This document shows positions 9,422 to 36,809 of a stretch of DNA of 64,000 bases, one piece after another. The notes below the pieces were generated by a model that was not told where the DNA came from, ran no database searches, and saw only the letters and a list, made by a program, of their open reading frames with translations. The DNA is taken from positions 44 through 64,043 of the forward strand of contig JAJZJQ010000005.1 in NCBI GenBank assembly GCA_021851065.1, given 5' to 3'. The first letter of the stretch is position 1. The number at the start of each line of letters is the position of its first letter. Position numbers and translations under genes: made by a program. The stretch is from Candidatus Micrarchaeota archaeon. Lineage in GTDB: Archaea > Micrarchaeota > Micrarchaeia > Micrarchaeales > CABMGC01.

Positions 9422-9600
9422 GCCAGCTGGCAGTTTGATAGGTGACATCCTCCCACAACTGAAGTCTGTGGGCTTCCAATGGTGCTTTTTGATTGGTCAT
9501 CGTGAAGCACCAAGTATAGTTCCTGATTCAGCGGCATCCGCCTTCATGTGCGAAGGTCTTACAATGTCTCCAGAGGCGTGACTTCCCGAATGTCCTTCGG
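9422..9600 (-). ncRNA. Predicted TnpB omega/reRNA (scaffold plus ~20-nt flank-derived guide)
   Basis: Structured right end overlapping the tnpB 3' end (GGTGCT...AGCACC stem and terminal hairpin); 5' boundary uncertain. Confidence 0.6.
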
Positions 9601-10775
9601 TAGCTCGTTTGAGTATGTTCTTTGCCGCATTCAGGTCCCTGTCCATTGACATTGCGCACCTTTGGCAGCCGAATGTCCTTTCTGATAGGGGCATTTCCTG
9701 AATGTTTCCACATCCACTGCATGTCTTTGAGGTGTTGTTAGGGTTCACCCCCAATGCCACGCAACCGGCACTCTCAGCCTTGTATTGCAGCATTTGGGCG
9801 AAGTTTCCCCATGAGGATTCGCTGATGGATTTAGCAAGATGGTGATTTTTCACCATGTTTGCGACTTTGAGTTCCTCGTATGCTATGAATGAGTATGAAT
9901 TCACAAGATTATGGGAGATTTTGTGGAGGCGGTCTTCCCTGATTCTTGATACGTGTTCAGAGTATTTTGCAAACCTGCGTATTGCTCTTTTCCTATTTGC
10001 GCTTCCCTTTTTCTTCCGTGAAATCCTTTGCTGAAGACGTTTCAGGGATTTTCTTTGCAGTCCTGAGATTTCGGCATTCTGGAAGACTTTGCCATCTGAA
10101 AGAGTTGCGTAGTTTGCAATCCCCAAGTCTATTCCGACTGGCTGTTTTCCGTTTGTGAATGGAAATATGTCTTCCTTTTCAGCAGATATGGTTACATACC
10201 ATTCGTCTGATTTTGTCTTCTTTATTGATAGGGTCTTTATCCTGCCCTCAATTTTTCTGTGGTTCACAAAATTTATCCTGCCTATCTTTGATAGTTCAAC
10301 CCTCTTGCGTTCAGTCCTGAATCCCGATTGCGGATATGTCAATGATGAAACGAACTTCCTGAAACGCGGGAATCCGACTTTTTGCCTTTTACCGTTGCGT
10401 TTTTCCTTTGCCCTTCTGAAGAAGTTTTTGTATGCCTTTGAAAGCCTGTCAGGCACATTCTGCAATACCTGTGAATAGACGTCATTGTATTCTGGATGCT
10501 CCTTCTTGAACTTAGTAATCCATTTTATCATATCGTATCTGGTGAAGGTCTTGCCATTATCTTTGAAGTGCTGTTTTGCCTTCTCAAGGAGATGGTTGTA
10601 GAGTTCCTTGCACAGATACATCTGCAGATTAAGAATAGCCTTTTGTTCTTTTGAAGGATACGCCCTGAATTTGTATGTTGTTTTCACGATGGCCATATTT
10701 ACTACTTCATTAAGATTTATACGCATTCGCTTTCATCCCACGATTGGAAATCGTAGGTTTTCCCGCTATGAACCT
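9442..10775 (-). mobile_element. IS200/IS605-family TnpB-only (IS1341-like) element
   Basis: Minus strand: TTTAT followed by left-end hairpin CCTACGATTTCCAATCGTGGG; right end GGAAGCCCACAGACTTCAGTTGTGGGAGGATGTCAC ending in TCAC; lower GC than flanks; no tnpA. Confidence 0.85.
9497..10696 (-). CDS. tnpB: RNA-guided endonuclease TnpB
   Basis: YKFRAYP start, GFPRF, RuvC GIDLG / YEEL / DRDLNAAKNI, zinc ribbon CSGC...CQRC. Confidence 0.96.
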   Translation of the reverse strand: MAIVKTTYKFRAYPSKEQKAILNLQMYLCKELYNHLLEKAKQHFKDNGKTFTRYDMIKWITKFKKEHPEYNDVYSQVLQNVPDRLSKAYKNFFRRAKEKRNGKRQKVGFPRFRKFVSSLTYPQSGFRTERKRVELSKIGRINFVNHRKIEGRIKTLSIKKTKSDEWYVTISAEKEDIFPFTNGKQPVGIDLGIANYATLSDGKVFQNAEISGLQRKSLKRLQQRISRKKKGSANRKRAIRRFAKYSEHVSRIREDRLHKISHNLVNSYSFIAYEELKVANMVKNHHLAKSISESSWGNFAQMLQYKAESAGCVALGVNPNNTSKTCSGCGNIQEMPLSERTFGCQRCAMSMDRDLNAAKNILKRATEGHSGSHASGDIVRPSHMKADAAESGTILGASR

Positions 10776-14076: not shown

Positions 14077-14143
14077 AGGCCACACCCATAGAGGATAATA
14101 TCGATATAGCTTAATATATAACTATCAGGGTATATGCTACTGT

Positions 14144-14230
14144 GCAGGGGTGGCAGAGCCTGGCCAAATGCGACGGGCTTAGGACCCGCTTCCTTTAGAG
14201 GATGCAAGAGTTCAAATCTCTTCCCCTGCA
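14144..14230 (+). tRNA. tRNA-Leu(TAG)
   Basis: GCAGGGG/CCCCTGC acceptor stem, anticodon loop CTTAGGA, long variable arm, GTTCAAATC T-loop, discriminator A. Confidence 0.93.
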
Positions 14231-14369
14231 TATAACTCTAAGGAGCGTGCAACAACGTAAGAGTTTATGATTCTACCGCTTCATGAGCGACCTATCCACT
14301 ACATCCTTCATGTAATTGAAATAGATGAGAAAAGGGGCTTTGGCCCCTTTTGAACCCCCAGCACTAGGG

Positions 14370-15005
14370 TTTCCTCCCCCGACTACGTCGGTGGTATCTC
14401 ACCCCTCGCTGCAGTTTCAATTGAACTGCAACTTTGTCTGTTTACCCTCTTCTCTGCCTGGCATGAACGGTTCATACGAGACATCCTGCCCCCTGATGTA
14501 GTTCTGTCTGATGTTCTGCCCTACCGGCCCGACACTTGTTCCTGTAGGCTGTCCACCCCAGAATTCTTTGCGAGGATTCGCTTTATGAAGTTCGGCATCT
14601 CTTTGAAGACTTTCGATGCAGAGTGTGATTTCAGAATCTGCCTCACCTGTTGCATTGAAAGGTTTGCAGGTACATTTACCATCATGTGTATGTGTGCATA
14701 GTCATCTCCGAAAGCGAATTCCTTTATCTTGACGCCAAATTGCACTTCCACTTCTCGGAAAGCATCTGCAACAACTTTCTGCGTCTTCGGATTCCTGAAG
14801 ACCTTGAATCGGTACTTTGATACCAACACAATGTGTTGAAAATTGTACACCCAGTCCAATTCATTTTTATTCTTTGCATACGCTAAGCTAACCATTGTTT
14901 CACTTCGGCGCGACGAACATCACGTCGCGTCACTATTTTTCATCTGAAAATGCGTATATTTGTTGCAGGATTAGGTAAGCACCCCCGACGAGGTCGGGGG
15001 AAAGC
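14370..15005 (-). mobile_element. IS200-like element (TnpA only)
   Basis: Related subterminal hairpins CCGACTACGTCGG (~14379-14391) and CCCCCGACGAGGTCGGGGG (~14982-15000) flank tnpA; exact ends uncertain. Confidence 0.7.
14417..14895 (-). pseudogene. tnpA: IS200-family Y1 transposase TnpA, frameshifted
   Basis: HIVLVSKYR and HIH (HUH) motifs; after KR near 14575 a shifted frame reads PRKEFWGG...SVG...NYIRGQ, which holds the catalytic Tyr. Confidence 0.85.
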
Positions 15006-15215
15006 TCTCACTTATTCTTTCAGACTCAAATGCCTCAGTCGGTTTGTCGTGAGAAACAAATTTCGGGATCGTACAACTTTATCAATGGGAAGAAAGCCTT
15101 TTATACCACCTTTGCGCATGGATTAACGGGTGGAACAGTGCTCTCTTCGGCATATTAAGCGTAAGTATATGTGGATTTGATTTATTCAATGCGCTTCCAC
15201 GCGCACCTTGTTATT

Positions 15216-16601
15216 TTACTCGTAGTTGGCCAATTCTTTGGGCCTGAGCTTGCCCGATTCCACAAGAAGCCTGTGCTGCCTTGAATGGTCGTTGTCGAAC
15301 CTCCTGCTGCACAGCGAGCCGACCATTATTTTTGTAATTACAGTGGAAGTCACTGTGCTGCCTTCCAGCTCCTTTGTTATCCGCTCAGCCACGTCATCTA
15401 TGCCTTTATCGCTAGTTAGCTGCTGGAACAAAACCGTGCCCTCTGGAGCGCCTATATTTCCTGTTAGTAGGTACTTGTTTGCTATCTGTCCTTGTTCAAT
15501 TATGTCCATGAGAAATTTATACCTGTTCTCCTCGACCTGTTTTTCGTATATGTTTGCAATATGAAGCATTCCTATATACTGCGATTGAAGATCTGGGATT
15601 GCTATTGTTGGCCTCACAATAACACCTCTTGACTTCAGGTCGTGGTATGCGTATCTCGCCGATCCGCTGGCAAGCGCGTATTTCCTGTCTATCTCAGAAA
15701 AGCTGGCTGTGCTGTTGGCATTCAGTTCTTTGAGAATGGCAAATTCCCTGCGCATTAGAATGCCGCCAGATTTATAGCTGCGTTTCCTAGCCTTTTCTAT
15801 AGTCTTAAGCGTTGCGTCTATAAACTCGTTTCTCAATGGCACGAAGGAATATGTCATGCCTATAGGCACAAGATTCCACAGCATCCCATGTTTTCCGAGT
15901 TCAGTATTTATCATGAGGCTCCTAAAGTCCTCTATCACTTTGACTGTGTCCGTAGTGTCAAGCAGGTATGCCACAATATCATATTCTCCTTTTGTCCTGG
16001 CTGCAAACTGCACCATGGGGTTTCGTACGAATGCACTCTCGATCTCCGTCTGGCTCGGCGCCTTCCCTTCGAATCTTATCAACAAAAGATAAGGTATGTA
16101 TCCAAGGCTGGACAGGTCCAGTTCCAGTATGTATTTGAGCCCCAGCTGCTTCTCAAGGTTGCCTATCCTATTATATGCTGTCTGCTTGTCGATTCCTGAT
16201 ATCCTTGCCGCTTTTGCTATAGATATCCTCGCATTCATGCTTAATGCAGTCAGGAGCCTAAGATCTGAGCCCTTTGTTGGCATGTTTGTTTTCTGTTGTG
16301 CATCGAGTTCTTGGCCATGCTGCCTGTGCCATATTATCTCGCCTCCGCGTTCAGTGATAAGTGCAGCGGCATTGTCTATGTCATCAGTTGCAGAAAGCTT
16401 CTTCTTTACGAATACTCCTTCATCATTTATCCTCCCCAGATATTCTGCTTTGGTTACGGTGCGTTTTTTGTCGCTGTGCCAGACGCTGGTATGCCTGTAT
16501 ACATAGTACCTGCCGTTCAGTTTCTTGAGCACTATATAAAACGGGTAGTGCCTCTTCAGCTCCTCGAATCTTTCCCGTACCTTGATTGGGTCGCCCTCCA
16601 T
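15216..16601 (-). CDS. Large tandem Lrp/AsnC-like transcriptional regulator with an extra N-terminal domain
   Basis: DLRLLTALSMNARISIAKAARISG...AYNRI..LE HTH, RAM-like GEYDIV, second HTH (ILKELNANSTASFSEI); paralog at 58089-59486. Confidence 0.8.
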   Translation of the reverse strand: MEGDPIKVRERFEELKRHYPFYIVLKKLNGRYYVYRHTSVWHSDKKRTVTKAEYLGRINDEGVFVKKKLSATDDIDNAAALITERGGEIIWHRQHGQELDAQQKTNMPTKGSDLRLLTALSMNARISIAKAARISGIDKQTAYNRIGNLEKQLGLKYILELDLSSLGYIPYLLLIRFEGKAPSQTEIESAFVRNPMVQFAARTKGEYDIVAYLLDTTDTVKVIEDFRSLMINTELGKHGMLWNLVPIGMTYSFVPLRNEFIDATLKTIEKARKRSYKSGGILMRREFAILKELNANSTASFSEIDRKYALASGSARYAYHDLKSRGVIVRPTIAIPDLQSQYIGMLHIANIYEKQVEENRYKFLMDIIEQGQIANKYLLTGNIGAPEGTVLFQQLTSDKGIDDVAERITKELEGSTVTSTVITKIMVGSLCSRRFDNDHSRQHRLLVESGKLRPKELANYE

Positions 16602-16923
16602 GCTTACATACTATATAACATTTAATCAGATATTTAAATTAGATGGTATTTATCACGTTGTAAATAACATCTGTTTTAATACATTTATCATAAAATGATA
16701 GACACGTATTGTTTTTTTGTCTGATTTTATCAGAAATACCGAGATGACACTTAAATAAAAGCCCTGCTATAACACTCTTCACGGGTCTTGGGGATATGAT
16801 GGATCTGGACAAACGGATTATTTTGTTCGTCTCGTTCTTAGCTGGCCGCATGCCCATCCCAATGCTGGCAGCTCCAGCCTATTCCCACCCATCCCGCTTG
16901 AACTGAGATGATTGGGTCAGTGT

Positions 16924-18069
16924 ATGAAAACAAAAGGAATACAGGCAGCGCAGATGCATGGAATTGATTTGAAGTTCATGGAGGCCGCCATGGAGGAGGC
17001 GCGAAAGAGCATGACGGAAGGTGGAATACCTATAGGCGCTATACTGGTAAAAGATGGTGCGATAATCGGCAGAGGGCACAATATGCGCATACAGACAGGC
17101 AACCGCATGGCCCATGCAGAGATAGACTGCCTTGAGGATGCGATAAGGTCTGCGGGCAAGCAGGCCGTTGAAGGCTCCACATTATACTCGACGCTTATGC
17201 CGTGCCACATGTGCGCCGGAGCGGTAGTCCACTACGGTGTAGGAAACGTAGTCGGTGCAGAGAACCAGACCTTCCCAACCGGCGAGCGGATACTGCAGAC
17301 AGAGGGCGTGAGAACCATAAACCTTGAGCTGGAGGAATACCAGCTAATGCTCCAGGGATACGTTGACGGGCACCAGGAGCACTGGCAAGGCGGTGAAACT
17401 GGAATCAAATCGCTAAGGCGCAAGGACAGCGCGACTCTAGGGGCAAACTGGGCTCTTATAGAGCACGAGCTACAGCGGCTGGTAACACGGCTGCATGCCG
17501 AGCTAGGCTGGTTCGATGACGAGAGCGTTGCAAACACCCCACGGATGGTGGCAGGATTCTACAGGGAACTCTACGAAGAGCATGCTGGGGATCTTCGCGT
17601 CACGCAGTTTGATGGGCCTGCATCAAAGCGCGGCACACTGATAACTCAAAGCAGAATAAAGACGTATTCAATATGCATACACCACATGCTTCCTTTCGAG
17701 TGCAACGTAAGCATAGGCTATGTTCCTGAAAACGGAAGGGTGATAGGGCTGTCCAAGCTATCAAGAGTTGCTGCAAAGTTTGCAAGCAAGCCTACCATGC
17801 AGGAGCGCATGACGCAGGATATAGTAGATTTCCTGCAGGGAGAACTCAAGCCGTCGTTTGTCATATGCCTGGCAGAAGGCATACACCACTGCTCCGTGAT
17901 AAGGGGAGTGTGCCAGCAGAGCGCCACATTCACGACTTCTGCAATGAACTGGAACCATGAGAAGCTGGGAGAAGCCGATGCCGACCGCCTGAAAGAGGAA
18001 TTCCTTGTAACCATAAGATACGCCAATGGTGGAATCTATGACCGTGAAAACAAGACAGACAGGACATAA
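16924..18069 (+). CDS. Cytosine-deaminase-like domain fused to GTP cyclohydrolase I (FolE)-like domain
   Basis: N-half EGGIPIGA, GRGHNMR, HAE, PCHMC; C-half TP.., SICIHHMLPF, IGLSKLSR, QERMT, HHCSVIRGV; single uninterrupted ORF; start uncertain (16912-16954). Confidence 0.9.
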   Translation: MKTKGIQAAQMHGIDLKFMEAAMEEARKSMTEGGIPIGAILVKDGAIIGRGHNMRIQTGNRMAHAEIDCLEDAIRSAGKQAVEGSTLYSTLMPCHMCAGAVVHYGVGNVVGAENQTFPTGERILQTEGVRTINLELEEYQLMLQGYVDGHQEHWQGGETGIKSLRRKDSATLGANWALIEHELQRLVTRLHAELGWFDDESVANTPRMVAGFYRELYEEHAGDLRVTQFDGPASKRGTLITQSRIKTYSICIHHMLPFECNVSIGYVPENGRVIGLSKLSRVAAKFASKPTMQERMTQDIVDFLQGELKPSFVICLAEGIHHCSVIRGVCQQSATFTTSAMNWNHEKLGEADADRLKEEFLVTIRYANGGIYDRENKTDRT

Positions 18070-19384
18070 CGAAGAGCTAATCCCGCTGAGAAGCATTCCT
18101 GGAGTTAATGTATTCCAGTATCCTCCGGCGATGCCTGCAGGCCCAGGGGCCAAGGAGCAGTTTGCCGGAAATCTTGCACTTACGCAGAGGCTTGCACAGG
18201 GAGAGGAGTTCACGATGTTCGTTTCGATACCCTATTGCAAGGTGAGGTGCAACTCCTGTCCATATTTCAAGGCGAAGATGCCAAAGGGCGCAGGCTACGA
18301 CTTCCTCGACCCCTACGTGAGTGCACTGGAGACGCAGATGGCCGCCTATGCGCAGACCGAAAGGTTTAGGTCAGGGACACTTGCCGCAATCTACATGGGC
18401 GGTGGCACCGCATCGCTTCTTTCCGCAGATCAGGTCAGACGGATTGTTGGGTTTGCAAAAAGCGCATTCAGAACAAGCGCAGGAATGGAGATAACCCTCG
18501 AAGGAAATCCATCCGATTTCAACAGGGCCTATTACGCCGAGGTGGTATCGCACGGAATCAACAGGCTGTCGATAGGGTATCAGAGCGCGGATTCTGACAT
18601 ACTTGTGGACAAGCTGGGCTCGCCACACAACGCAAGCGAGGGCTTGCGCTCGCTGCAGGATGCCATTCAGGCGGGGTTCCGCACGGTAAACGTCGATATG
18701 CTATACGGGATACCTGGGCAGAAGCTTGAACAGTGGCAGCGCGATCTTGGAATCGTGATAGGGCTTGGCCCGGAAAGCGTGACCACCTACTCATACATAG
18801 TGTATGGGAATACAGTCGCAGAGCTGCGAATAAGGAAGGGAACCCTCGACGCGCAGATAGACGACGATGAGAAACACAGGTGGTATCTTTACACAAAAGG
18901 CACGTTTGAGGATAATGGATATGTCCTTTACAAAAAAGGGCACTTCATCAGGCCGGGGCACCCGCAGGCATATTCCGATCTTTCCTACAGGGTAGGCACA
19001 GAGAGCCTGGGAATAGGTGCAGGCGCGTACAGCTTTGTCAACGGATACCTTTTCATGTCGGTAGGGAATCCCAAAAAGTTCACGACGGACATGGAACGCG
19101 GACTGTTTACTGCTGCAGATTTCCAGTCCTCGCAAGCCAATACAGATGCACGGATGGCGAAGTATCTCATGCACAGCGTGGCGACAGGCACGATAGACGT
19201 GCAGGAATTCAGGGTAATGTTCGGGACGGATCCAAGGAATGTCTACAGGGCCATATTCGAGGAGATGAGTGCAAAGGGCCTCACCGAATCAGGAGATGGC
19301 TCGATAAGTATGACGGACCGTGGAACCAGGTGGCAGCAGAACATAATGAGCGCGTTCTATCACGAAGGGTTGAGGCGCGCATGA
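18038..19384 (+). CDS. HemN-like radical SAM enzyme
   Basis: IPYCKVRCNSC (CxxxCxxC), YMGGGTAS, EITLEGNP, NRLSIGYQS, DMLYGIPGQ, GIGAGAYS; overlaps the upstream gene. Confidence 0.92.
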   Translation: MTVKTRQTGHNEELIPLRSIPGVNVFQYPPAMPAGPGAKEQFAGNLALTQRLAQGEEFTMFVSIPYCKVRCNSCPYFKAKMPKGAGYDFLDPYVSALETQMAAYAQTERFRSGTLAAIYMGGGTASLLSADQVRRIVGFAKSAFRTSAGMEITLEGNPSDFNRAYYAEVVSHGINRLSIGYQSADSDILVDKLGSPHNASEGLRSLQDAIQAGFRTVNVDMLYGIPGQKLEQWQRDLGIVIGLGPESVTTYSYIVYGNTVAELRIRKGTLDAQIDDDEKHRWYLYTKGTFEDNGYVLYKKGHFIRPGHPQAYSDLSYRVGTESLGIGAGAYSFVNGYLFMSVGNPKKFTTDMERGLFTAADFQSSQANTDARMAKYLMHSVATGTIDVQEFRVMFGTDPRNVYRAIFEEMSAKGLTESGDGSISMTDRGTRWQQNIMSAFYHEGLRRA

Positions 19385-19419
19385 TCAGAAACCGATATAA
19401 GCACCTCTGATGCATTATC

Positions 19420-20745
19420 ATGGGAGTTGATAATTTGGGGGCGTTGCAAAGGGACAGAGTGCCTGCGGTTACGACTGAAGTCGTCAGGAATCTTGCCCTT
19501 ATGAAGCAGGGTCTTACTGCTGGTGATAGGTCCAGAGGCAAGCCATCCATACTCGATGCCATAAAGCAGATACGGCTGCTGCAGCTTGACAGCGTCAATG
19601 TTGTTGACAGGAGCCACTATCTTGTCATTTTCAGCAGGATAGGCACTTATGATAGGACAGACCTTGACTCCCTCCTGTTTCCAGACCGCGCCCTATTTGA
19701 GCAGAGGAGCCACGAAGCGTGTTTCATACCCTCTGAAGATTACCCCCATATCAGCCCTGAGATAACGAACAGGAGAAGCCAGCCAATAAGCAACATGAGG
19801 CTCAGGCAGCTTGGCGGTGACCCAGACTCGGTTTTGCGCGCGGTATTGGAGAGGATAAAAGAAGAAGGGCCATTATCCTCTAAAGATTTCGTAGATGCCA
19901 GGCGCGATGAGAGGAAGGGTTGGTGGGACAGAAAGCCTGAGCGCGTTGCGCTGGAGATATTATGGAGGCAGGGATACCTTGCAGTGCAGAGGCGAGCCAA
20001 CTTCCAGCCGTATTATGATCTGCCTGAGCGCGTCATACCATCCAAATTCAGGAAAGGCAGCCACTCGCTTGCGGACTTCAGGAGGTGGGCGGCAACTAAC
20101 GCCCTCATGGCCCAGGGGATTGCCACCGCTGCAGACGTGAACGACTACTATCGTCAGAACATAAAGGAAACGAGAGCCACGCTTGAGGAACTCGTCGCAG
20201 AAGGCACTGTTGTAAAGATAAGGGTAAGCGGATGGAAGGATGATGCATATGTATTGGCAGGCGATCTTGGAATCGCAGAAAAACTTGCATCCGCAGGGCC
20301 TTTGGCCACACGTACCACGTTACTCTCGCCGTTTGACAACCTCATCTGGTTCAGGGACAGGGCCGAAAGGCTTTTCGGGCTGCATTTGAGGGTGGAGATG
20401 TACACGCCTAAAAAGGACAGGTCATTTGGCTACTATGCAATGCCGATACTGCATGAAGGGGCCATAATTGGGAAGGCGGATCCGAAGATGGCAAGGGACG
20501 ATGGGACTCTGATAATAAATAATGTCGAATTCAATCCGGGCGTGGCTCTTGATGAGGGCCTTGCAAGGTCCGTGAGCGGAGCATTCGACGAGCTTGCGAG
20601 ATTCGGCGGCTGCGATTCCGTAGTTATTGGCAGCCGAGTTCCAGATAGTGTACGAACCATGCTGGAAGGGCATTTGGGCAGTGTGGCTGAAAGCGCCAGG
20701 GCTGGCCATGAACCTAAGCAGGGCATGCGCAGGCTGAAGGCATGA
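19420..20745 (+). CDS. YcaQ/AlkZ (HTH_42)-family DNA glycosylase, YcaQ-like QxD type
   Basis: LLQLDSVNVVDRSH, SRIG.YD, GWWDRKP, YDLPERV, LLSPFDNLIW.RDR, EMYTP..R.FGYYAMPIL. Confidence 0.92.
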   Translation: MGVDNLGALQRDRVPAVTTEVVRNLALMKQGLTAGDRSRGKPSILDAIKQIRLLQLDSVNVVDRSHYLVIFSRIGTYDRTDLDSLLFPDRALFEQRSHEACFIPSEDYPHISPEITNRRSQPISNMRLRQLGGDPDSVLRAVLERIKEEGPLSSKDFVDARRDERKGWWDRKPERVALEILWRQGYLAVQRRANFQPYYDLPERVIPSKFRKGSHSLADFRRWAATNALMAQGIATAADVNDYYRQNIKETRATLEELVAEGTVVKIRVSGWKDDAYVLAGDLGIAEKLASAGPLATRTTLLSPFDNLIWFRDRAERLFGLHLRVEMYTPKKDRSFGYYAMPILHEGAIIGKADPKMARDDGTLIINNVEFNPGVALDEGLARSVSGAFDELARFGGCDSVVIGSRVPDSVRTMLEGHLGSVAESARAGHEPKQGMRRLKA

Positions 20746-21122
20746 CCAGGAAGGCAAGCTGTGTGATCTTCGTTTTCCTGAAGGAAGAACTCTTCCTTGC
20801 AGAGAGACGACCTGAACATGAATCCATAGATCCTGGCAAGCTTGCCCTTCCAGGGGAACATGTAGAACATGGAGAAAGCCTTGAGCAGGCGCTAATAAGG
20901 GGCTGCCGTGAGGAGCTTGACGTTGAGCCTACAAAATACTGGCTTTTCTTCCAGCAAAGATACCTAACGGAGCGTGAGGATCAGGACTGCTACTATTATG
21001 CAGTAACGGGGTGGAAAGGGACTATAAGGCAGGTTGAAGCAGGAGAGCTGGCATGGATCCGATTGGATGAACGCCATCTTGTGGAGACCGGGATCGACAG
21101 GAATGCGATCTTCCATCTCTAG
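20742..21122 (+). CDS. NUDIX hydrolase (MutT-like)
   Basis: PGEHVEHGESLEQALIRGCREELDV (variant Nudix box); ATGA overlap with the glycosylase gene. Confidence 0.85.
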   Translation: MTRKASCVIFVFLKEELFLAERRPEHESIDPGKLALPGEHVEHGESLEQALIRGCREELDVEPTKYWLFFQQRYLTEREDQDCYYYAVTGWKGTIRQVEAGELAWIRLDERHLVETGIDRNAIFHL

Positions 21123-21132
21123 TACAAGCCGC

Positions 21133-21549
21133 CTAGCGCTCCCTGAGGAACTCGTCTATCTGCGATTCTGCTTCCCCTATTGCATCGTATTTTTTGACCA
21201 CCAGGTATTTGTTGCCATCTATTATGGCGGAAAGGTGCCTCCCTGGAGAGGGCCTATAGAGGCAGAGCACGGGCTTCCCAAGCTCCTGCGCCTTTGCAAG
21301 CTCCCATCCCTGGCCATGGGAAGGCGATGAAACCTCAGCAACCACCACGTCCGCTTCCTCCAGCCATTTCAAGTCCCTGTTGTAGATCCTTACGCTGTTC
21401 TCGTGTGAAGGGTCAAGGCTGATCCCCTTATGGTCGGCAAGGTGCCTCGTGAGCACCGTGCCATATCTCTCCAGATGCTCTATCAGCTCAGCATAGGTGG
21501 AAATATCTATTATCCCGCCTCTAACTGAAGCAGAGAAGTAAATATTCAT
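21133..21549 (-). CDS. Nucleoside 2-deoxyribosyltransferase family / DNPH1 (RCL)-like dNMP N-hydrolase
   Basis: IYFSASVRGG, GTVLTRHL, IYNRDLKWLEEADVVVAEVSSPSHGQGWEL, KPVLCLYR, LSAII.G. Confidence 0.88.
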   Translation of the reverse strand: MNIYFSASVRGGIIDISTYAELIEHLERYGTVLTRHLADHKGISLDPSHENSVRIYNRDLKWLEEADVVVAEVSSPSHGQGWELAKAQELGKPVLCLYRPSPGRHLSAIIDGNKYLVVKKYDAIGEAESQIDEFLRER

Positions 21550-21638
21550 AAAGGAATTAGAGGGACGCAGTATTAAATCTGCTTACAGGCCTGCGATCAG
21601 GTCTCGCCTACAAGCTTTTCGCGCTCGGAACTGTATCT

Positions 21639-21881
21639 GTGCTCGAAGAGGTACCTCCAGTTGGCAAGCCTGTTGATGAGCGTGCCCTCTGCCCCGTATT
21701 TCCTGTACAGCATGAGAAAAGGGGCCAAAATCCCTTTTCTCATATGGTAGGCATTGCGATAGGAATAGCGTGGTATACCGCCTCACAGCACTTGATTAAG
21801 CTGGAAAGAGAGGGCAAACTAAAATATTTCAGAATCGGACGCCAGAATCAATATATTCTAGCGTCGAGGTTGAAAAACTAA
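21639..21881 (+). CDS. Small winged-helix protein (possibly truncated)
   Basis: GIAWYTASQHLIKLEREGKLKYFRIGRQNQY fits a wHTH C-half; start uncertain. Confidence 0.5.
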   Translation: MLEEVPPVGKPVDERALCPVFPVQHEKRGQNPFSHMVGIAIGIAWYTASQHLIKLEREGKLKYFRIGRQNQYILASRLKN

Positions 21882-21928
21882 GCCAAGCGAGAGTGTTCAA
21901 ATGCAATACGAAAAACAAAAAATAACGT

Positions 21929-21960
21929 GGATGCAAGAGTTCAAATCTCTTCCCCTGCAT
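21929..21960 (+). repeat. att-like copy of the tRNA-Leu 3' end
   Basis: Identical to 14200-14231. Confidence 0.92.
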
Positions 21961-22007
21961 CTGCCTGAATGGCAAACGCCAGTGCAGCGGCCAGGTACTT
22001 GGCGGAA

Positions 22008-22508
22008 TTAGCCTTTGGGGATTACAATTCCACCGACAAAGTCATGGAAAAATACCCTTTCTCCTTTATGCCTGATTTCTTCGCTGCCAGTGAATGCGGA
22101 GATATCCCCATTCAGGGAGCTATGATACTCCCAGTCCCCATCCTTGAAGAATTTCTGGCCCCTGGGTTGGAATTGCCCTGCCTTTTCGCCGCTTTTAAGG
22201 GCTTTCTTTAGGAATTCGAAGGTTTCATGTGCAAAAGCGGTGTCTTGTACATGTTTCTCTTCCATGCCCCCGCCATAATTCTGCACCCATACCGGGCGGC
22301 CTTTGTAGAATATTGTCTCTGTCCCCCATGACCTGAACCACCCGGTATACATATCCTTATAGTTCCAGTCCCCTTTTCGGTATGCCAGTGCAGTGTATCC
22401 ACCTTCAACAGTTCCGGCCATTCCGCCAGCATAGGTAGACCGGGATGCTTCTCCAAGAAACTGGTTCAGCTCCCTTAAGAACTGCTCTTGGTTGTTCTGC
22501 TCTGGCAT
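22008..22508 (-). CDS. DUF5680-like protein
   Basis: TYAGG, GDWNYKDMYTG, PVWVQNYGG, PRG, FTGSEEI pattern; family name from memory. Confidence 0.75.
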   Translation of the reverse strand: MPEQNNQEQFLRELNQFLGEASRSTYAGGMAGTVEGGYTALAYRKGDWNYKDMYTGWFRSWGTETIFYKGRPVWVQNYGGGMEEKHVQDTAFAHETFEFLKKALKSGEKAGQFQPRGQKFFKDGDWEYHSSLNGDISAFTGSEEIRHKGERVFFHDFVGGIVIPKG

Positions 22509-22650
22509 GGAATTCCCACCATGATCTTACATCAGGGAATTTATAAAACGGCATCCGTGGAATGCATGTTGCAGCCTGCCTTGTGCAGTAGCTGCGTAAA
22601 GAGCTTGGCTTTGGGGCTTGCCGCCTTCGCAGCAGACATTTCTACGCAAG

Positions 22651-23004
22651 TCACCTTGCCTTAAGGATCTTGCGTAGCCCGCCGTACTTGAAAGTCACAA
22701 GGCCTAGCAGTGCCATGAGAATCCCAGACAGCATGTCCCCCATGGTTAGCAGTATCGGCATCCTGAAAGAGGTTGTGCCAACAGGCAATGAACTCCTGTT
22801 GTATATGCGCCCGCTTGCGGCTGTAGCCTGCTGGCTGCTGCCGGTCTGAGTAGATGCGCCGCCAGATCCTGAGAGGTGCCTTGGCAGAGCCGGCGAGGCG
22901 AAATAGTTGTATGCAGAATATGCGAAGAATGCTGCGCCAAGCGCAATCAGCAGCAATCCAACCATCTCAATGCCTGTCCATCCATTATAGGTTCTTGTAG
23001 ACAT
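22651..23004 (-). CDS. Small two-TM membrane protein
   Basis: Two hydrophobic helices around a Ser/Gly/Thr-rich loop. Confidence 0.65.
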   Translation of the reverse strand: MSTRTYNGWTGIEMVGLLLIALGAAFFAYSAYNYFASPALPRHLSGSGGASTQTGSSQQATAASGRIYNRSSLPVGTTSFRMPILLTMGDMLSGILMALLGLVTFKYGGLRKILKAR

Positions 23005-23148
23005 ATTTACCACTATATTAGTGTGCACCTGAAAGATACACATAAACAAGCAGCACTCCTGCTATTATCACCAGAAATCCCGTTGCAATGGCTATCATCT
23101 GCATGAGCTTCCTGTCTGGGGGCGCCTTCTCATCCATGCTATCGCCAA

Positions 23149-24759
23149 TTAATCCACTGTGACATTTCCTTCAAGCACGCCTTTGTCTGTGAATACCAGC
23201 AGTCTGTAGCTGCCGGATGGATTGGTTGGCAGATTTAAGCCGAGTTGGCCGTTGTATGCGAACCTAGCAGCCGAATGCGGGCCTATGCTGTATCCCAGCG
23301 GCTCTTGCGGCGCAGGCAGGGGCATTGCACCGTAAGGTGATGAGAGAGTGCCATTGTAGTTCACCATAAAGTCCATGCCCCCATCCATCGTAGTGAAGAA
23401 TCCCTGGGCCCGGATTGTTGGCCCAGTGATGCCAGATATCCTTATGCTGTTGACCGGGCTCTTTAGGGTTATATTTACAGAATTAATCCCGCAGCACTGT
23501 ATATCGGAATATACCGCAGAGGCATTTATAATTACGCTGGAGTTTGACTGGACGAAGAAGTTGCCGTCGTAAGCCGCATTGCCACCGTATCTCATGACAT
23601 AGAAGTCTGACCCGTTTGGCGATGGGCGTGACGATGCTTCACCCCCTGATTCAGATATTCGCTGGTTTATGTATGTAGCCGCCGCTACCTGGACAGGCTG
23701 AGCTTGGGCAGATGCGCCTAGCGGCACTGCAATAGGCTGCCTGAACTGTGAATCGTTAGTGCCATTTACTATAGACATGCTTATTACGGTAAGGTTGCTT
23801 GAGCCGTGGTTGCTTATGGATGCATCAAACGAGACGCTGCCTGAATCAAATGCTAGGGTTGCGTTTGACACCGTTGCGTTTATGTCCGGCTTTTCGAAGA
23901 ACCTGGCGCTGAACATGCCTCCAATAGGGGTGGTAAGTCGTATCCCCACCCCGGAGTTTACACGGGTTATCATGCCTGGGTTTGAGAACACTGCTGCCCT
24001 CAAAGCTGGCACAAGTATGAATACGGTGGTGTTTTGCGTGGACAGCGTGGCTATGGACGGATAGAAATCCATCAGGACATCGGAAGAGTCGTTTATGATT
24101 CCACCGTTAGTGACATTTGCAACCACCTCCCTTATAGGGACATAGACGCTGTAACTGGAATTCCCTATGGTTATGCTTGCATAGGTTATGTTGAACTTGA
24201 TGCCATCAACAGCTGCATTTTGCCTGACATCTGCAAGGCCTATTATCTGGGATTCGTTTATGAGGCTCATGAGGTTTAGCCTGCCGCTGGAATTGAGGTC
24301 AAGCCATGCTGAGCTTGCGTTGCTGTAACTGACATGGACCTTTAGCGAGGAGTAGTTTATGTAAAGAGCGCGAGTGCCCTGCGGCACAATTGGCGGATCC
24401 GTTATGCTTATTGGAACGTACGAAGATTGCTGTGCAGGCCTTGAGTAATATGCCCCTAGTGCGTACAGAGATGCCATAAGACCCAGAACGGCAATGGCAG
24501 ACACCACTATCATCCTGTTTACCGTAACTCCGCTCTTTCGGACCTTCTCCGCATTTATCTCCTGGTTAAGATCATAATACTTCCACTTCTTGAAAGGAAC
24601 GTCCCTTTGACGTATTATGCCATGGTCCTCGAGATCCTGCAGGTGTTTGCTTACTGTGGATGGTGCCAGGCCAAGCTTCTTGCATATGGCACTTAGGGTG
24701 TTGTCCCCGTGGGAGATGAGTTTTATTATCTCCTCCTTTGTAGCTCCATGCCTGTTCAT
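23149..24759 (-). CDS. ArsR-type HTH + TM + extracellular (DUF4382-like) domain; membrane-tethered regulator
   Basis: TLSAICKKLGLAPSTVSKHLQDLEDHGII; TM at ~aa 83-105; ISITDPP...YSSLKVH; many sequons. Confidence 0.8.
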   Translation of the reverse strand: MNRHGATKEEIIKLISHGDNTLSAICKKLGLAPSTVSKHLQDLEDHGIIRQRDVPFKKWKYYDLNQEINAEKVRKSGVTVNRMIVVSAIAVLGLMASLYALGAYYSRPAQQSSYVPISITDPPIVPQGTRALYINYSSLKVHVSYSNASSAWLDLNSSGRLNLMSLINESQIIGLADVRQNAAVDGIKFNITYASITIGNSSYSVYVPIREVVANVTNGGIINDSSDVLMDFYPSIATLSTQNTTVFILVPALRAAVFSNPGMITRVNSGVGIRLTTPIGGMFSARFFEKPDINATVSNATLAFDSGSVSFDASISNHGSSNLTVISMSIVNGTNDSQFRQPIAVPLGASAQAQPVQVAAATYINQRISESGGEASSRPSPNGSDFYVMRYGGNAAYDGNFFVQSNSSVIINASAVYSDIQCCGINSVNITLKSPVNSIRISGITGPTIRAQGFFTTMDGGMDFMVNYNGTLSSPYGAMPLPAPQEPLGYSIGPHSAARFAYNGQLGLNLPTNPSGSYRLLVFTDKGVLEGNVTVD

Positions 24760-29969: not shown

Positions 29970-30536
29970 TCAGAGCTCTTTGTACCTGAAGCATGATGTC
30001 ACGTGGTCGTTGACCATGCCTGTTGCCTGCATATGTGCATAGCATATTGTACTGCCCACGAACCGAAATCCCCTTTTTACAAGGTCCCTGCTAAGAGCAT
30101 CCGACTGAAGGCTGCGAGCCGGTATCTGTTTTATGCTCTTCCACCCGTTTCTTACCGGTTTGCCGCCTACGAACCGCCATATGTAGGAATCGAAGCTGCC
30201 AAACTCATCCTGCACCTGGATGAAGGCCTTTGCATTGGTTACGGCAGACTCTACCTTTAGCTTGTTGCGTATTATGCCTGGATCCCTAAGCAGGCTTTCG
30301 ATCCTGGCTTTGCCATATCTTGCTACTCTCTCAGGATCGAAATTGTCGAATGCCTTACGGTAGTTATCGCGCTTTTTAAGCACTGTGAGCCAGCTTAGCC
30401 CTGCCTGCGCTCCCTCCAGGACGAGGAACTCGAACATGCTGCGATCGTCGTGCACAGCAACCCCCCATTCGCTGTCATGATATTTTATATATATAGGGTC
30501 TGAGACAGACCACTCGCAACGTTTTATGTCGGCCAT
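29970..30536 (-). CDS. tag: DNA-3-methyladenine glycosylase I
   Basis: RCEW, YHDSEWG, LEGAQAGLSW, IIRNKLK, FRFVGSTICY, GMVNDH. Confidence 0.95.
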   Translation of the reverse strand: MADIKRCEWSVSDPIYIKYHDSEWGVAVHDDRSMFEFLVLEGAQAGLSWLTVLKKRDNYRKAFDNFDPERVARYGKARIESLLRDPGIIRNKLKVESAVTNAKAFIQVQDEFGSFDSYIWRFVGGKPVRNGWKSIKQIPARSLQSDALSRDLVKRGFRFVGSTICYAHMQATGMVNDHVTSCFRYKEL

Positions 30537-33498: not shown

Positions 33499-34305
33499 GT
33501 GCTTATGATGGGCAAAGGTACAGTATTAGAGGCGCAGCAACTAGAGGCTCAATTAGAGAGCTTATTGCCACGCCTGAGCAAAGCAAAGGTAAGGCACCTC
33601 AAGGAGCTTATACTGCACCACTACATAAAGGCTTACAACATAAAGAGCAACCAAATTCCACGCTACGGGACGCTGAATAAGGGCTTTAGGCAGGAAGAGC
33701 TGGACAAGTTCCTTGCTGCTGTTGATAACCCTAAATTCAGGCTATTTTTCAGCTATCAGGCTTATCTGGGGCTTCGCATAGGCGAGGCGGTAAAAATCAG
33801 GCTAGAGGACATAAACCAGGCTACTCGTGAGCTTAAGGTGTTCACGGAGAAGGCTAGAGTCCTCAACACCATGATAATACCGCTACCGTTCTTTAACGAA
33901 ACTCTTGAATACGTCAAGGCTAATGAAGCCCAGATAGGCTCAGCTCAGGGCTACCTCTTTTATGCAAATAAGGAGGCTAGCCATGCCAAGCGTACGGACC
34001 CTTGGCTAGAGCTGAATTATGTGCGCAAAGTCTTCAGGAGCTACATAAGGCTCGCTGGGCTTGATGAAGTGTACGGACAGAGTGAGGAGAGGGACGGAAG
34101 GGGAATAAGGCATCTGCATAGGTTGACGACGCACAGCCTGCGGCACTATGCAATTACTAAGTTCTCCAAGGCTACAAATGGCAACCTAATCCTTACCTCT
34201 CGCTTTGCTCGGCATCTCAAGCCAGAAACGACGTTGAATTACGTCCACAGCGACAAGAGTGAGCTATATTCTTATGCAGAACAAATGGCTGCGCAGTCGA
34301 GATAG
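33499..34305 (+). CDS. Tyrosine recombinase/integrase
   Basis: LGLRIGE (R), EKA (K), HSLRH, ARH..PETTLNY (catalytic Y). Confidence 0.93.
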   Translation: MLMMGKGTVLEAQQLEAQLESLLPRLSKAKVRHLKELILHHYIKAYNIKSNQIPRYGTLNKGFRQEELDKFLAAVDNPKFRLFFSYQAYLGLRIGEAVKIRLEDINQATRELKVFTEKARVLNTMIIPLPFFNETLEYVKANEAQIGSAQGYLFYANKEASHAKRTDPWLELNYVRKVFRSYIRLAGLDEVYGQSEERDGRGIRHLHRLTTHSLRHYAITKFSKATNGNLILTSRFARHLKPETTLNYVHSDKSELYSYAEQMAAQSR

Positions 34306-35423: not shown

Positions 35424-36809
35424 TCACTGGCCGTTCATTGCAACTGTTGGAGGCGTGAGAAGCGCTGGATCAGGCCCGGTTATGGCTAGCGGGAGAACTG
35501 CGCCAGCATGGCCGGACAGATCGCCAACAGTCCAGTGCCGTCTGGAGAGGGATAGGAGCCTCTTTTCGTAGATTATTTCCTCGAGGAGAGTGTTGAACGC
35601 CTCTGGTATCGAAGCGCTCTCGAATATGCCTTTAAGTATTGCTACCGCCTGCTCCTGCAGGGCCAGCCTGAACCCGTAGGCATCCGGAGAGCTTTCCAGG
35701 GCGCTGAATATAGACTGGCTTTGCGCATTCATGCTGCTAAAGTCCACTGCCGTGGCAGCTAGCATTGTGCCGTCGGTACTGTTTAGATGGGATACGAATG
35801 ACCCCATGAGGGCGTTGGTTTCAGACAGTATGCCGTTTATTTCATTTACCGTGCCCTGCGGCTGGTTGGATAGATACAGATGTGCCTTGGCAAACATCAC
35901 CATGTTCCTCTCGTTGATCTCCTTGATCAGCATCCCCAGGTTTCCACCGAATCTGTCAAGGCATGCGTCCTTGTCAAGCACATAGGATTCCATCAATTCG
36001 CGCAGATACATGCTCGACGCGTTAATTATGGAGGCGATTCTTTGGCCGTCAACTACGATTATCTCGCCTTCCACTTCCCTTTGGGTCATCTTCCCCCTGT
36101 ACCATTCATCAGGATAGGCGCCTACAAGGCGCAGGGCCATACTTATTCCGCCATGCGTTGACGATCTTGATGCATCAGTCACTGAGTTTATGAACCCTAA
36201 TCCCGCGCGAGCGTATGTCAGGTCCCTCATGCTCCTTTCCACTGAAAGCAATCCGTCAGCACCCATATCTGCGGCTATGCGCCCTGAAGCTACCTTGCCA
36301 AGCTGATTTTCCACCATTGGCCCGATGGCTGCAGCTAGCCTTGAAGAGATTATTCCATGTCCATCCATATACTTAGTAAGCAGGTCAAGCGCGTTAACTC
36401 TGCGTTCAAGTTTGGCAAGGCCCTTGACTCCGCGCTTTGAGAGTCTGCCGAGCGCTCTTTCGTGCAGCTCGCCCATTTCTGCTTCCACCTGGCGCATGTG
36501 GCCTGCGCGATCCCCGTTTTTAAGCGCTACGCTGAGCCTTGGAGCAAGCCCGTTGCGCATGGCCCTGTATGCATAGGCATCGTACTCGCCGTATGTGCGC
36601 ATCTTGGCACGCACTATCTCGAGTTCATCCACAGCATCCCGTATGGCTGAAGTATTTGGCTTGCGCAGCATGGGCCCCAGGTTGTCAAGCCTTGATCTTA
36701 GGCCTTCGATTCTTTTGCTGGATTTTAAGAGCGTGGCGTCTATTTCGTGCGATGCTTTGCGGTGCATCCTCTCATTGTGCGCAACTCTCCTGCCAGTAGC
36801 CATTATCAT
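35424..36809 (-). CDS. Hypothetical alpha-helical protein
   Basis: 461-aa ORF with GGTG upstream; no recognisable motif. Confidence 0.7.
   Translation of the reverse strand: MIMATGRRVAHNERMHRKASHEIDATLLKSSKRIEGLRSRLDNLGPMLRKPNTSAIRDAVDELEIVRAKMRTYGEYDAYAYRAMRNGLAPRLSVALKNGDRAGHMRQVEAEMGELHERALGRLSKRGVKGLAKLERRVNALDLLTKYMDGHGIISSRLAAAIGPMVENQLGKVASGRIAADMGADGLLSVERSMRDLTYARAGLGFINSVTDASRSSTHGGISMALRLVGAYPDEWYRGKMTQREVEGEIIVVDGQRIASIINASSMYLRELMESYVLDKDACLDRFGGNLGMLIKEINERNMVMFAKAHLYLSNQPQGTVNEINGILSETNALMGSFVSHLNSTDGTMLAATAVDFSSMNAQSQSIFSALESSPDAYGFRLALQEQAVAILKGIFESASIPEAFNTLLEEIIYEKRLLSLSRRHWTVGDLSGHAGAVLPLAITGPDPALLTPPTVAMNGQ

Follow-up and report, generated by a model that had tools for sequence, protein, structure and literature searches.

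A mobile deaminase–GTP cyclohydrolase I fusion from a Micrarchaeota archaeon belongs to a conserved module with a HemN-like radical SAM enzyme and a YcaQ-type glycosylase

We analyzed a 64,000-nucleotide stretch of a Candidatus Micrarchaeota archaeon genome (contig JAJZJQ010000005.1, positions 44 to 64,043; hereafter the window), in which one open reading frame joins a cytosine deaminase-like domain to GTP cyclohydrolase I (FolE). This gene heads a four-gene operon that also encodes a HemN-like radical S-adenosylmethionine (SAM) enzyme, an AlkZ/YcaQ-like glycosylase, and a NUDIX hydrolase. The genes are tightly packed, with a 44-nucleotide overlap between the fusion and the radical SAM gene, a 35-nucleotide gap before the glycosylase, and a 4-nucleotide overlap between the glycosylase and the NUDIX gene. 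Archaeal markers (eIF2-gamma, S6e, aRF1, and RFC) are present in the window, and the fusion is the only PF01227 gene of the host genome (G000; 1.13 Mb, 87.5% complete). The operon comprises the following features:

16924..18069, plus strand: fusion protein P0001, 381 residues, from ATG at 16924 to TAA at 18067-18069 (open reading frame, Pfam, AlphaFold2, Foldseek).
16966..17253, plus strand: zinc deaminase core, residues 15-110, with GRGHNMR, HAE, and PCHMC (Pfam, yeast cytosine deaminase alignment, clade tree).
17392..17439, plus strand: inter-domain linker, residues 157-172, predicted to be disordered (predicted local distance difference test, pLDDT, <50).
17515..17958, plus strand: GTP cyclohydrolase I core, residues 198-345 (Pfam, alignments, Foldseek).
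18026..19384, plus strand: HemN/ChuW-like radical SAM enzyme with CxxxCxxC (Pfam, NCBIfam, homologues, loci).
19420..20745, plus strand: AlkZ/YcaQ-like HTH_42 glycosylase with a Q-L-D motif (Pfam 216.8 bits; Q55, D57).
20742..21122, plus strand: MutT-like NUDIX hydrolase (Pfam and NCBIfam, below equivalog cut-offs).

The fusion is a real protein with two true enzyme domains. Pfam places dCMP_cyt_deam_1 at residues 15-110 with 83.6 bits, far above the cut-off, and GTP_cyclohydroI (PF01227) at residues 198-345 with 125.8 bits against a gathering score of 27. An original prediction for this DNA had proposed the fusion and quoted motifs from both halves, and all of these can be read directly: GRGHNMR (residues 49-55), HAE (64-66), PCHMC (93-97), and the tail EHWQGGETG from W154 in the deaminase, where the lid helix reaches W154 and then gives way to a degenerate tail, and TPRM (205-208), CIHH (251-254), GLSK (275-278), ASKPTMQER (287-295), and HHC (321-323) in FolE. 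Structure prediction, which had been suggested as a check, bore the assignment out; the AlphaFold2 model has two confident domains joined by the disordered linker (mean pLDDT 84.8), and these match the FolE and yeast cytosine deaminase folds. In Foldseek searches with this model FolE structures ranked on top, with target template modeling (TM) scores of 0.75-0.81 that place the domain among T-folds, and yeast cytosine deaminase scored about 0.7; among solved structures the protein came closest to yeast cytosine deaminase, at E 3.5e-31, and to GTP cyclohydrolase I, at E 3e-22. A TTG codon lies upstream of the annotated start, at 16912. Contigs from four runs of one mine-drainage study span the domain junction without differences, although these runs are possibly the source samples and the bridging contigs therefore do not count as independent support. 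A second protein, P0002, comes from another assembly, is 61% identical to P0001, and has the same deaminase and FolE architecture.

The deaminase, the HemN-like radical SAM enzyme, and the YcaQ-type glycosylase form a conserved module, hitherto undescribed, that is present in both archaea and bacteria. We counted nine loci that have flanking sequence and a radical SAM orthologue at least 36% identical (L197 is identical to L198, and the two were counted once); in seven of these (G000, G190, G064, L190, L194, L197, and L199) the deaminase and an AlkZ-like gene are found in the same operon. Outside the window, the gene orders of these modules are:

G190: MptE-like-deaminase, FolE, radical SAM, AlkZ-like, FolB.
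G064: deaminase, radical SAM, AlkZ-like, glyoxalase.
L190: deaminase, radical SAM, AlkZ-like, FolB, glyoxalase.
L194: canonical FolE, deaminase-radical SAM, QueE-like, AlkZ-like, QueD, FolE2 fragment, and further along QueC.
L199: NUDIX-HTH (helix-turn-helix), FolE2, QueD, deaminase-radical SAM, QueE-like, AlkZ-like.
L197: deaminase-radical SAM, QueE-like, AlkZ-like.

Fusions of the deaminase take three forms: with the HemN-like radical SAM enzyme, where the deaminase is N-terminal and the proteins have about 600 residues (7/74 radical SAM homologue clusters); with FolE (P0001 and P0002); and with an MptE-like domain (P0003 and P0004 of G190). The radical SAM protein of the window shares 46-54% identity with its G190, G064, and L190 counterparts and 38-39% with the fused bacterial forms, and homologues that lack the deaminase occur in other contexts in L192 (41%) and L193 (36%), the former adjoining a 2993-residue open reading frame and an SbnA/SbnB-like pair. 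A GTP cyclohydrolase I/IB gene or FolB is present in five of the seven module loci, or six when a QueE-like gene is counted. Members of the deaminase clade lie directly next to FolE in G190 and L194 and share clusters with FolE2, QueD, QueE-like, or FolB genes elsewhere. This agrees with the coupling of deaminase and cyclohydrolase put forward in the original prediction, and the repeated placement of the clade beside genes of the GTP cyclohydrolase I branch argues for a functional tie rather than an accidental fusion.

All seven modules include an HTH_42 protein with the Q-phi-D motif, the Gln and Asp of which are invariant in the six module glycosylases that were aligned. In the available text of a study of this family, Q-phi-D is the catalytic motif of YcaQ-like (YQL) enzymes, which excise 7-methylguanine and unhook crosslinks (PMC9040887). 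Glyoxalase/bleomycin-resistance-type genes accompany two of the seven modules. PADLOC returned a weak partial match to dCTPase for the deaminase and a match to PDC-S07 for the NUDIX protein, and none for the radical SAM or AlkZ-like proteins. We considered whether the radical SAM gene might encode a QueE and rejected this, given that it is HemN-like and gives no match to QueE models; we likewise rejected an operon for folate or methanopterin, as no DHPS was found in G000, G190, or G064. Small QueE-like radical SAM genes do occur in the bacterial modules, in every case with the deaminase-radical SAM fusion on one side and the HTH_42 gene on the other (L194:2669-3361, L197:11322-11999, and L199:5817-6524). 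Their products score about 100 bits against cut-offs of 200-300, which suggests that the bacterial QueE-like protein may act on an altered, possibly deaminated, substrate.

A parallel lies in genotoxin biosynthesis, where clusters reportedly pair a HemN-like class C radical SAM enzyme with a self-resistance glycosylase of a lesion-excising family in one operon (C10P/YtkT with YtkR2, and AlkZ in the azinomycin cluster). The present module differs from these in that its glycosylase has the Q-phi-D motif of YQL proteins, it lacks polyketide synthase and nonribosomal peptide synthetase genes, and its precursor would be GTP-derived. As far as the available text of the glycosylase study goes, the Q-phi-D motif never accompanies biosynthetic clusters in Streptomyces (PMC9040887).

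The deaminase domain has the zinc site of the CDA fold (H64-A-E66 and P93-C94-x-x-C97) together with the substrate-binding Asn (N53). It is about 40% identical to yeast FCY1, with which it shares GRGHNMR including the substrate Asn, HAE, PCxxC, and the pocket Phe and Trp. Our alignment reaches W152 of the yeast enzyme (...QDWF), beyond which the yeast protein presumably continues as W-F-E-D-I-G. This lid tail, W-x-E-D-I-G, is degenerate across the module clade, reading HWQGGETG in P0001 (W154-Q-G-G-E-T-G) and LWEG in the bacterial fusions, and is kept in the non-module deaminases P0006, P0008, P0018, and those that follow; the altered tail that the original prediction had singled out is thus a trait of the whole clade. 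We take Asp155 of the yeast lid to close over cytosine and bind its N1-H, and loss of the tail would then open the edge that carries the second ring in guanine- or pterin-type substrates. In a quick IQ-TREE phylogeny of 90 rows, with support from the Shimodaira-Hasegawa-like approximate likelihood ratio test (SH-aLRT), 14 deaminases labeled as module members by fusion or cluster group with P0005 in one clade (SH-aLRT 94). Within this clade the archaeal sequences group together (99), as do the bacterial deaminases that are fused to the radical SAM enzyme (91); P0005, which carries no label in the tree, is near-identical to the G064 deaminase. Compared to FCY1, the module deaminases constitute a separate clade with a degenerate lid, and they always adjoin or are fused to the HemN-like radical SAM enzyme. 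They also recall GCH II/RibD and ToxB/ToxE-type systems, in which an enzyme that opens the ring of GTP is linked genetically to a deaminase of the CDA fold, and like those would act on a 2-amino-4-oxo pyrimidine ring. Here, however, the cyclohydrolase is a T-fold FolE instead of RibA, the deaminase is FCY1-like instead of RibD-like (37.7 bits against a cut-off of 156 for the NCBIfam RibD equivalog), there is no RibD_C reductase domain, and the fusion is partnered with a radical SAM enzyme and a DNA glycosylase.

The FolE domain retains the zinc site (C251, H254, and C323), both catalytic His residues (H253 and H321), S277-K278, R281, Q293-E294, and R327, and these zinc and catalytic residues, including GLSK-x2-R and H-x-C-x3-RG, are invariant in alignments A2, A4, and A9. 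The residue assignment follows the E. coli numbering. An exhaustive HMMER search with residues 160-381 yielded 6806 relatives, only seven of them below 1e-30. The domain falls in a sub-clade, common on viruses and mobile DNA, that is marked by ELGWF(D/N)xE, a residue other than Glu in C-x-HH, ASKPxxQE with a variable position after it, and an extra segment near the C-terminus. Like the FolE proteins of preQ0 clusters on phages and mobile elements, it has a T-fold, Cys-His-Cys zinc ligands, both catalytic His, Gln-Glu, GLSK-x2-R, and H-x-C-x3-RG, and the closest viral FolEs (40% identity) adjoin QueD, QueE, and QueC; one of these, L093, reads CSHH and QEQ. Unlike those FolEs, the P0001 domain follows a deaminase, scores under the NCBIfam cut-offs, has Ile in C-x-HH and TPRM for TPxR, and carries an extra segment of about eight residues and a conserved tail common only to P0001 and P0002.

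The original prediction had taken CIHH, TPRM, and the Lys before Pro as signs that the cyclohydrolase acts on a shifted substrate or arrests midway, and this our comparisons do not support. Among the best 150 FolE relatives the x of C-x-HH is Glu in 71, Pro in 26, Ser in 22, Ala in 20, and another residue in 11, such that 79/150 lack Glu. It is non-Glu (Ser, Ala, or Pro) at eight of 80 viral FolE loci, and QueD and QueE lie beside seven of these eight compared with 53/72 of the Glu forms, a context in which the non-Glu forms serve as ordinary FolE. As the catalytic and metal residues are all kept and the position is variable, the variants give no argument for a changed reaction, and the fully canonical FolE of the L194 module points the same way. 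The oddity of the active site is thus not special overall, yet part of the observation stands: Glu is lost in the FolEs that are linked to the module or 49-61% identical (Ile in G000; Gln in G190, P0002, and P0063, the last two being included by identity and not by gene context), whereas a folate-linked FolE of the same sub-clade, in G079, keeps CEHH. At that locus (L181, G079:C33, 9076-10238) the standalone CEHH FolE adjoins a RibD_C-type reductase, and the genome has DHPS; this has the look of a true folate-type pathway in a relative among the Micrarchaeota. A FolE-like stretch in another genome (L175, G070:C14:17708-18287) is broken by several stop codons and is probably a decaying copy. 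Searching the literature for what Glu111 does in E. coli FolE gave nothing usable.

The original prediction had also called the fusion unusual, and the searches confirm its rarity. Among 5.8 billion proteins, both domains occurred on one protein in two of 62 matches (P0001 and P0002), with no longer fused form and no characterized case. Forty relatives, including 12 species of the same genus, gave no match spanning most of the fusion, and two of them gave short matches to the deaminase domain only. A 400-genome sample of the phylum contained one split version, in G190, where a 415-residue MptE-like and deaminase gene is directly followed by a 229-residue FolE that is 55% identical to the fused FolE domain. 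A profile scan of genome contigs, made with deaminase patterns only, recovered deaminase homologues and no second fusion; the ESM Atlas returned FolE clusters only; and matches in isolated phages were limited to FolE and in no case reached 80% coverage of the fusion. The deaminase-radical SAM fusion had no orthologue in a plasmid collection, where its top match was 30% identical and confined to the radical SAM part. A literature search found no paper joining GTP cyclohydrolase I or 7-deazaguanine enzymes, HemN-like radical SAM proteins, and AlkZ/YcaQ glycosylases, and the available portion of a review of HemN-like proteins nowhere mentions pterin, deaza, deaminase, or purine. All the component folds are known; the novelty lies in the architecture and in the module, each a new variant.

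The operon lies on a horizontally mobile accessory islet of 7.7 kb, inserted at a tRNA-Leu gene between two perfect copies of a 32-nucleotide repeat. The islet holds an IS200 copy, a 461-residue protein with an AsnC-type HTH domain, the four-gene operon, and a deoxyribosyltransferase-like gene. Features at its edges and around the operon are:

14143..14231, plus strand: tRNA-Leu gene (ARAGORN).
14200-14231, plus strand: left copy of the 32-nucleotide perfect direct repeat, equal to the last 32 nucleotides of tRNA-Leu.
14325..15019, minus strand: IS200/IS605-type element with a Y1 transposase open reading frame at 14521-14895 (Pfam Y1_Tnp); contigs break here.
15216..16601, minus strand: 461-residue protein with AsnC-type HTH, divergent from the operon (Pfam; tblastn synteny).
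21133..21549, minus strand: nucleoside 2-deoxyribosyltransferase-like protein, inside the islet (Pfam 45.5 bits).
21929..21960, plus strand: right copy of the perfect 32-nucleotide repeat, a duplicated tRNA-Leu 3' end that forms the right islet edge.

In all 12 genomes of the same genus the flanks (aRF1, SerRS, and ABC ATPase) match at 67-79% DNA identity, with nothing found for 15100-24200. Among the 40 relatives, radical SAM matches were limited to 25-27%-identical homologues in three, and no AlkZ-like match was found in any. Contigs from all four mine-drainage runs break at the repeat (21931/21959), and contigs also break at the IS200/IS605 element, of which DNA matches reveal many copies in G000 and its congeners. 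The operon has no anomaly in GC content (0.52-0.54 against 0.45-0.54 nearby), and no integrase gene was found inside the islet, the nearest integrase-family open reading frame being at 33499-34305. The 461-residue protein is likely a regulator; a 42%-identical homologue is also divergent from the G190 cluster. Proteins of this family, about 460 residues long with the HTH near residue 110 and a long unassigned C-terminus, are encoded in the window at 15216-16601 (minus), 58089-59486 (plus), and possibly 35424-36809 (minus), and the first two genes have 68% DNA similarity; the family could consist of regulators or mobile-element proteins. The deoxyribosyltransferase-like gene had no tblastn match in the other module loci; together with the NUDIX protein it could degrade a non-canonical dNTP to the free base. 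Just outside the islet is a DUF5680 gene (22008-22508, minus) not seen with the module elsewhere, and a separate TnpB/Cas12f-like open reading frame of 409 residues lies at 9497-10726.

The remainder of the host genome provides little for FolE to serve. A Pfam scan of G000 did not find PF01242 (QueD), PF02152 (FolB), PF00809 (DHPS), PF01973 (MptE), or PF02649 (MptA/FolE2), tblastn found nothing like QueD, QueE, or QueC, and no TGT/DpdA-type transglycosylase was found. With no known consumer of the FolE product in sight, the enzyme appears to have no housekeeping pathway to feed, although in a genome that is 87.5% complete these consumers are not proven absent. DHPS and QueD were likewise not found in G190 (96% complete). 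Elsewhere in the window, 29970-30536 (minus) encodes a 3-methyladenine DNA glycosylase I (Adenine_glyco, 275 bits), a second alkylation-repair glycosylase outside the islet, and 38224-44490 (minus) is a 2088-residue open reading frame without a Pfam match at E 1e-4 or better, next to an STT3-like oligosaccharyltransferase at 44770-47154; the 2088-residue product may be a giant surface protein.

Starting from the observed domain identities, conserved catalytic residues, gene association, fusions, and mobility, we propose that FolE feeds a new pathway in which the deaminase and the radical SAM enzyme produce a modified pterin or deazapurine-type base, a reading to which we assign a probability of roughly 0.5. 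Its residues being intact, the FolE domain would convert GTP to 7,8-dihydroneopterin triphosphate, from which a bicyclic 2-amino-4-oxo heterocycle would derive, of pterin type in Micrarchaeota and of 7-deazaguanine type in bacteria. The deaminase would remove the exocyclic 2-amino group of such a downstream compound, and the HemN-like enzyme may alkylate a ring carbon by adding a SAM-derived carbon, as class C enzymes do according to the available literature excerpts. The glycosylase and the NUDIX protein would either prevent the product or its nucleotide from entering DNA and the nucleotide pool or act on it within DNA, and the glyoxalase-type proteins of other loci may likewise protect or process DNA or nucleotides. 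In a fuller version, the pathway would yield a pterin- or 7-deazapurine-type base that has been deaminated and C-alkylated and that either is incorporated into DNA or is genotoxic, and the glycosylase, NUDIX, and glyoxalase-type proteins would act in self-protection; this version is tentative, and we lean against it at present.

This interpretation must be weighed against several observations that count in the opposite direction. One is G064, a single 853-kb contig that is 92% complete and has the deaminase, radical SAM, AlkZ-like, and glyoxalase genes without PF01227 or PF02649; the trio can evidently exist without its own GTP cyclohydrolase, the strongest argument against an obligate link. 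The FolB and MptE-like genes of Micrarchaeota and the QueD and QueE-like genes of bacteria lead to different ring systems, and no one substrate common to both branches suggests itself. The deaminase pocket is near that of yeast cytosine deaminase (the Ile, Asn, Leu, Phe, and Trp are kept at about 40% identity), and P0001 is much closer to this enzyme (E 3.5e-31) than to a CDA-fold guanine deaminase (E 4.5e-11); a monocyclic, cytosine-like substrate is accordingly possible on sequence grounds. P0001 lacks the Arg and Lys of TPxR-x2-K (TPRMVAG), presumably triphosphate binders, both of which P0002 keeps (TPDRIMR), and all NCBIfam FolE models fall below cut-off on P0001 (88.9-123.1 bits against 162-202), as they do on the G190 FolE and in contrast to that of L194 (265 bits, with CEHH and QER).

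Several of these points would sit well with an accidental fusion, in which a salvage deaminase converting cytosine to uracil became joined to an ordinary folate or pterin FolE without metabolic links between the domains or to their neighbors. The conserved catalytic and pocket residues of the deaminase, the G064 cluster that lacks any FolE, and the use of the same FolE sub-clade in the real folate pathway of G079, where DHPS is present and a RibD_C-type reductase adjoins FolE, are all compatible with this scenario. We nevertheless regard it as improbable given that the deaminase clade is co-inherited and repeatedly fused with HemN-like radical SAM enzymes, that none of DHPS, FolB, MptE, QueD, MptA, and TGT was found in the host genome, and that the operon sits on a mobile islet absent from 12 congeners and encodes a deaminase that has lost the FCY1 lid motif. 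One may also postulate, following the original prediction, that FolE acts on dGTP, an N7-alkyl-GTP, or another damaged guanine nucleotide, or else halts once the ring has been opened, the resulting pyrimidine being deaminated in the manner of GCH II with RibD. Taken with the glycosylase, the NUDIX hydrolase, and the deoxyribosyltransferase-like protein, the islet would then be a toolkit for clearing damaged guanine. The missing Arg and Lys of P0001 and the loss of the CEHH Glu in the module-linked and closest FolEs but not in the folate-linked one would be accounted for, as would the NUDIX and deoxyribosyltransferase-like genes in the islet of an organism from mine drainage; YQL glycosylases, moreover, excise 7-methylguanine and unhook nitrogen-mustard crosslinks in the text available to us (PMC9040887). 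We consider this scenario very unlikely, however, since the variable residues are common in FolEs of QueD/QueE/QueC clusters, P0001 retains both catalytic His and the Gln-Glu guanine anchor, the deaminase is far from RibD in score, and the radical SAM enzyme is left without a role. The bacterial modules weigh further against it, as their canonical FolE or FolE2, QueD, and QueE-like genes are only sensible together if dihydroneopterin triphosphate is formed.

A third alternative retains the trio but assigns it to DNA instead of to a small-molecule pathway: the module would install, edit, or police a non-canonical DNA base for modification or anti-virus purposes, with the HTH_42 protein as its DNA-acting part. 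An intact Q-phi-D HTH_42 protein in every module, 7-deazaguanine pathway genes in the bacterial modules, the mobile islet, and a FolE sub-clade typical of viruses are all in keeping with such a role, and the accessible text of a recent preprint describes glycosylases acting on 7-deazaguanine DNA as phage defenses (bioRxiv 10.1101/2025.10.29.685425). Against this, PADLOC does not match the radical SAM or AlkZ-like proteins, and searches of G000, and of the stretches within about 5 kb of the L194, L197, and L199 modules, turned up no TGT/DpdA-type transglycosylase. We also know of no hydrolytic glycosylase that inserts bases, and overall we judge a purely DNA-directed system to be unlikely. The proposal that FolE supplies the deaminase and the radical SAM enzyme with a pterin- or deazapurine-type precursor remains the one we favor.

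If this proposal is correct in its fuller form, the module would represent a new DNA-directed base or genotoxin system common to DPANN archaea and bacteria. Through repeated fusion and conserved operons it links three well-studied families, namely GTP cyclohydrolase I and 7-deazaguanine enzymes, HemN-like radical SAM proteins, and AlkZ/YcaQ glycosylases, and it introduces a new HemN-like subfamily with a built-in deaminase. The study of the glycosylase family describes the cellular pathway of the YcaQ-like (Q-phi-D) members as unknown (PMC9040887), and these enzymes would gain a concrete, testable metabolic partner. That a tiny symbiotic archaeon, in which no folate, queuosine, or archaeosine genes were found, nonetheless carries a mobile GTP-derived pathway points tentatively to conflict or protection, and not core metabolism, as its role.

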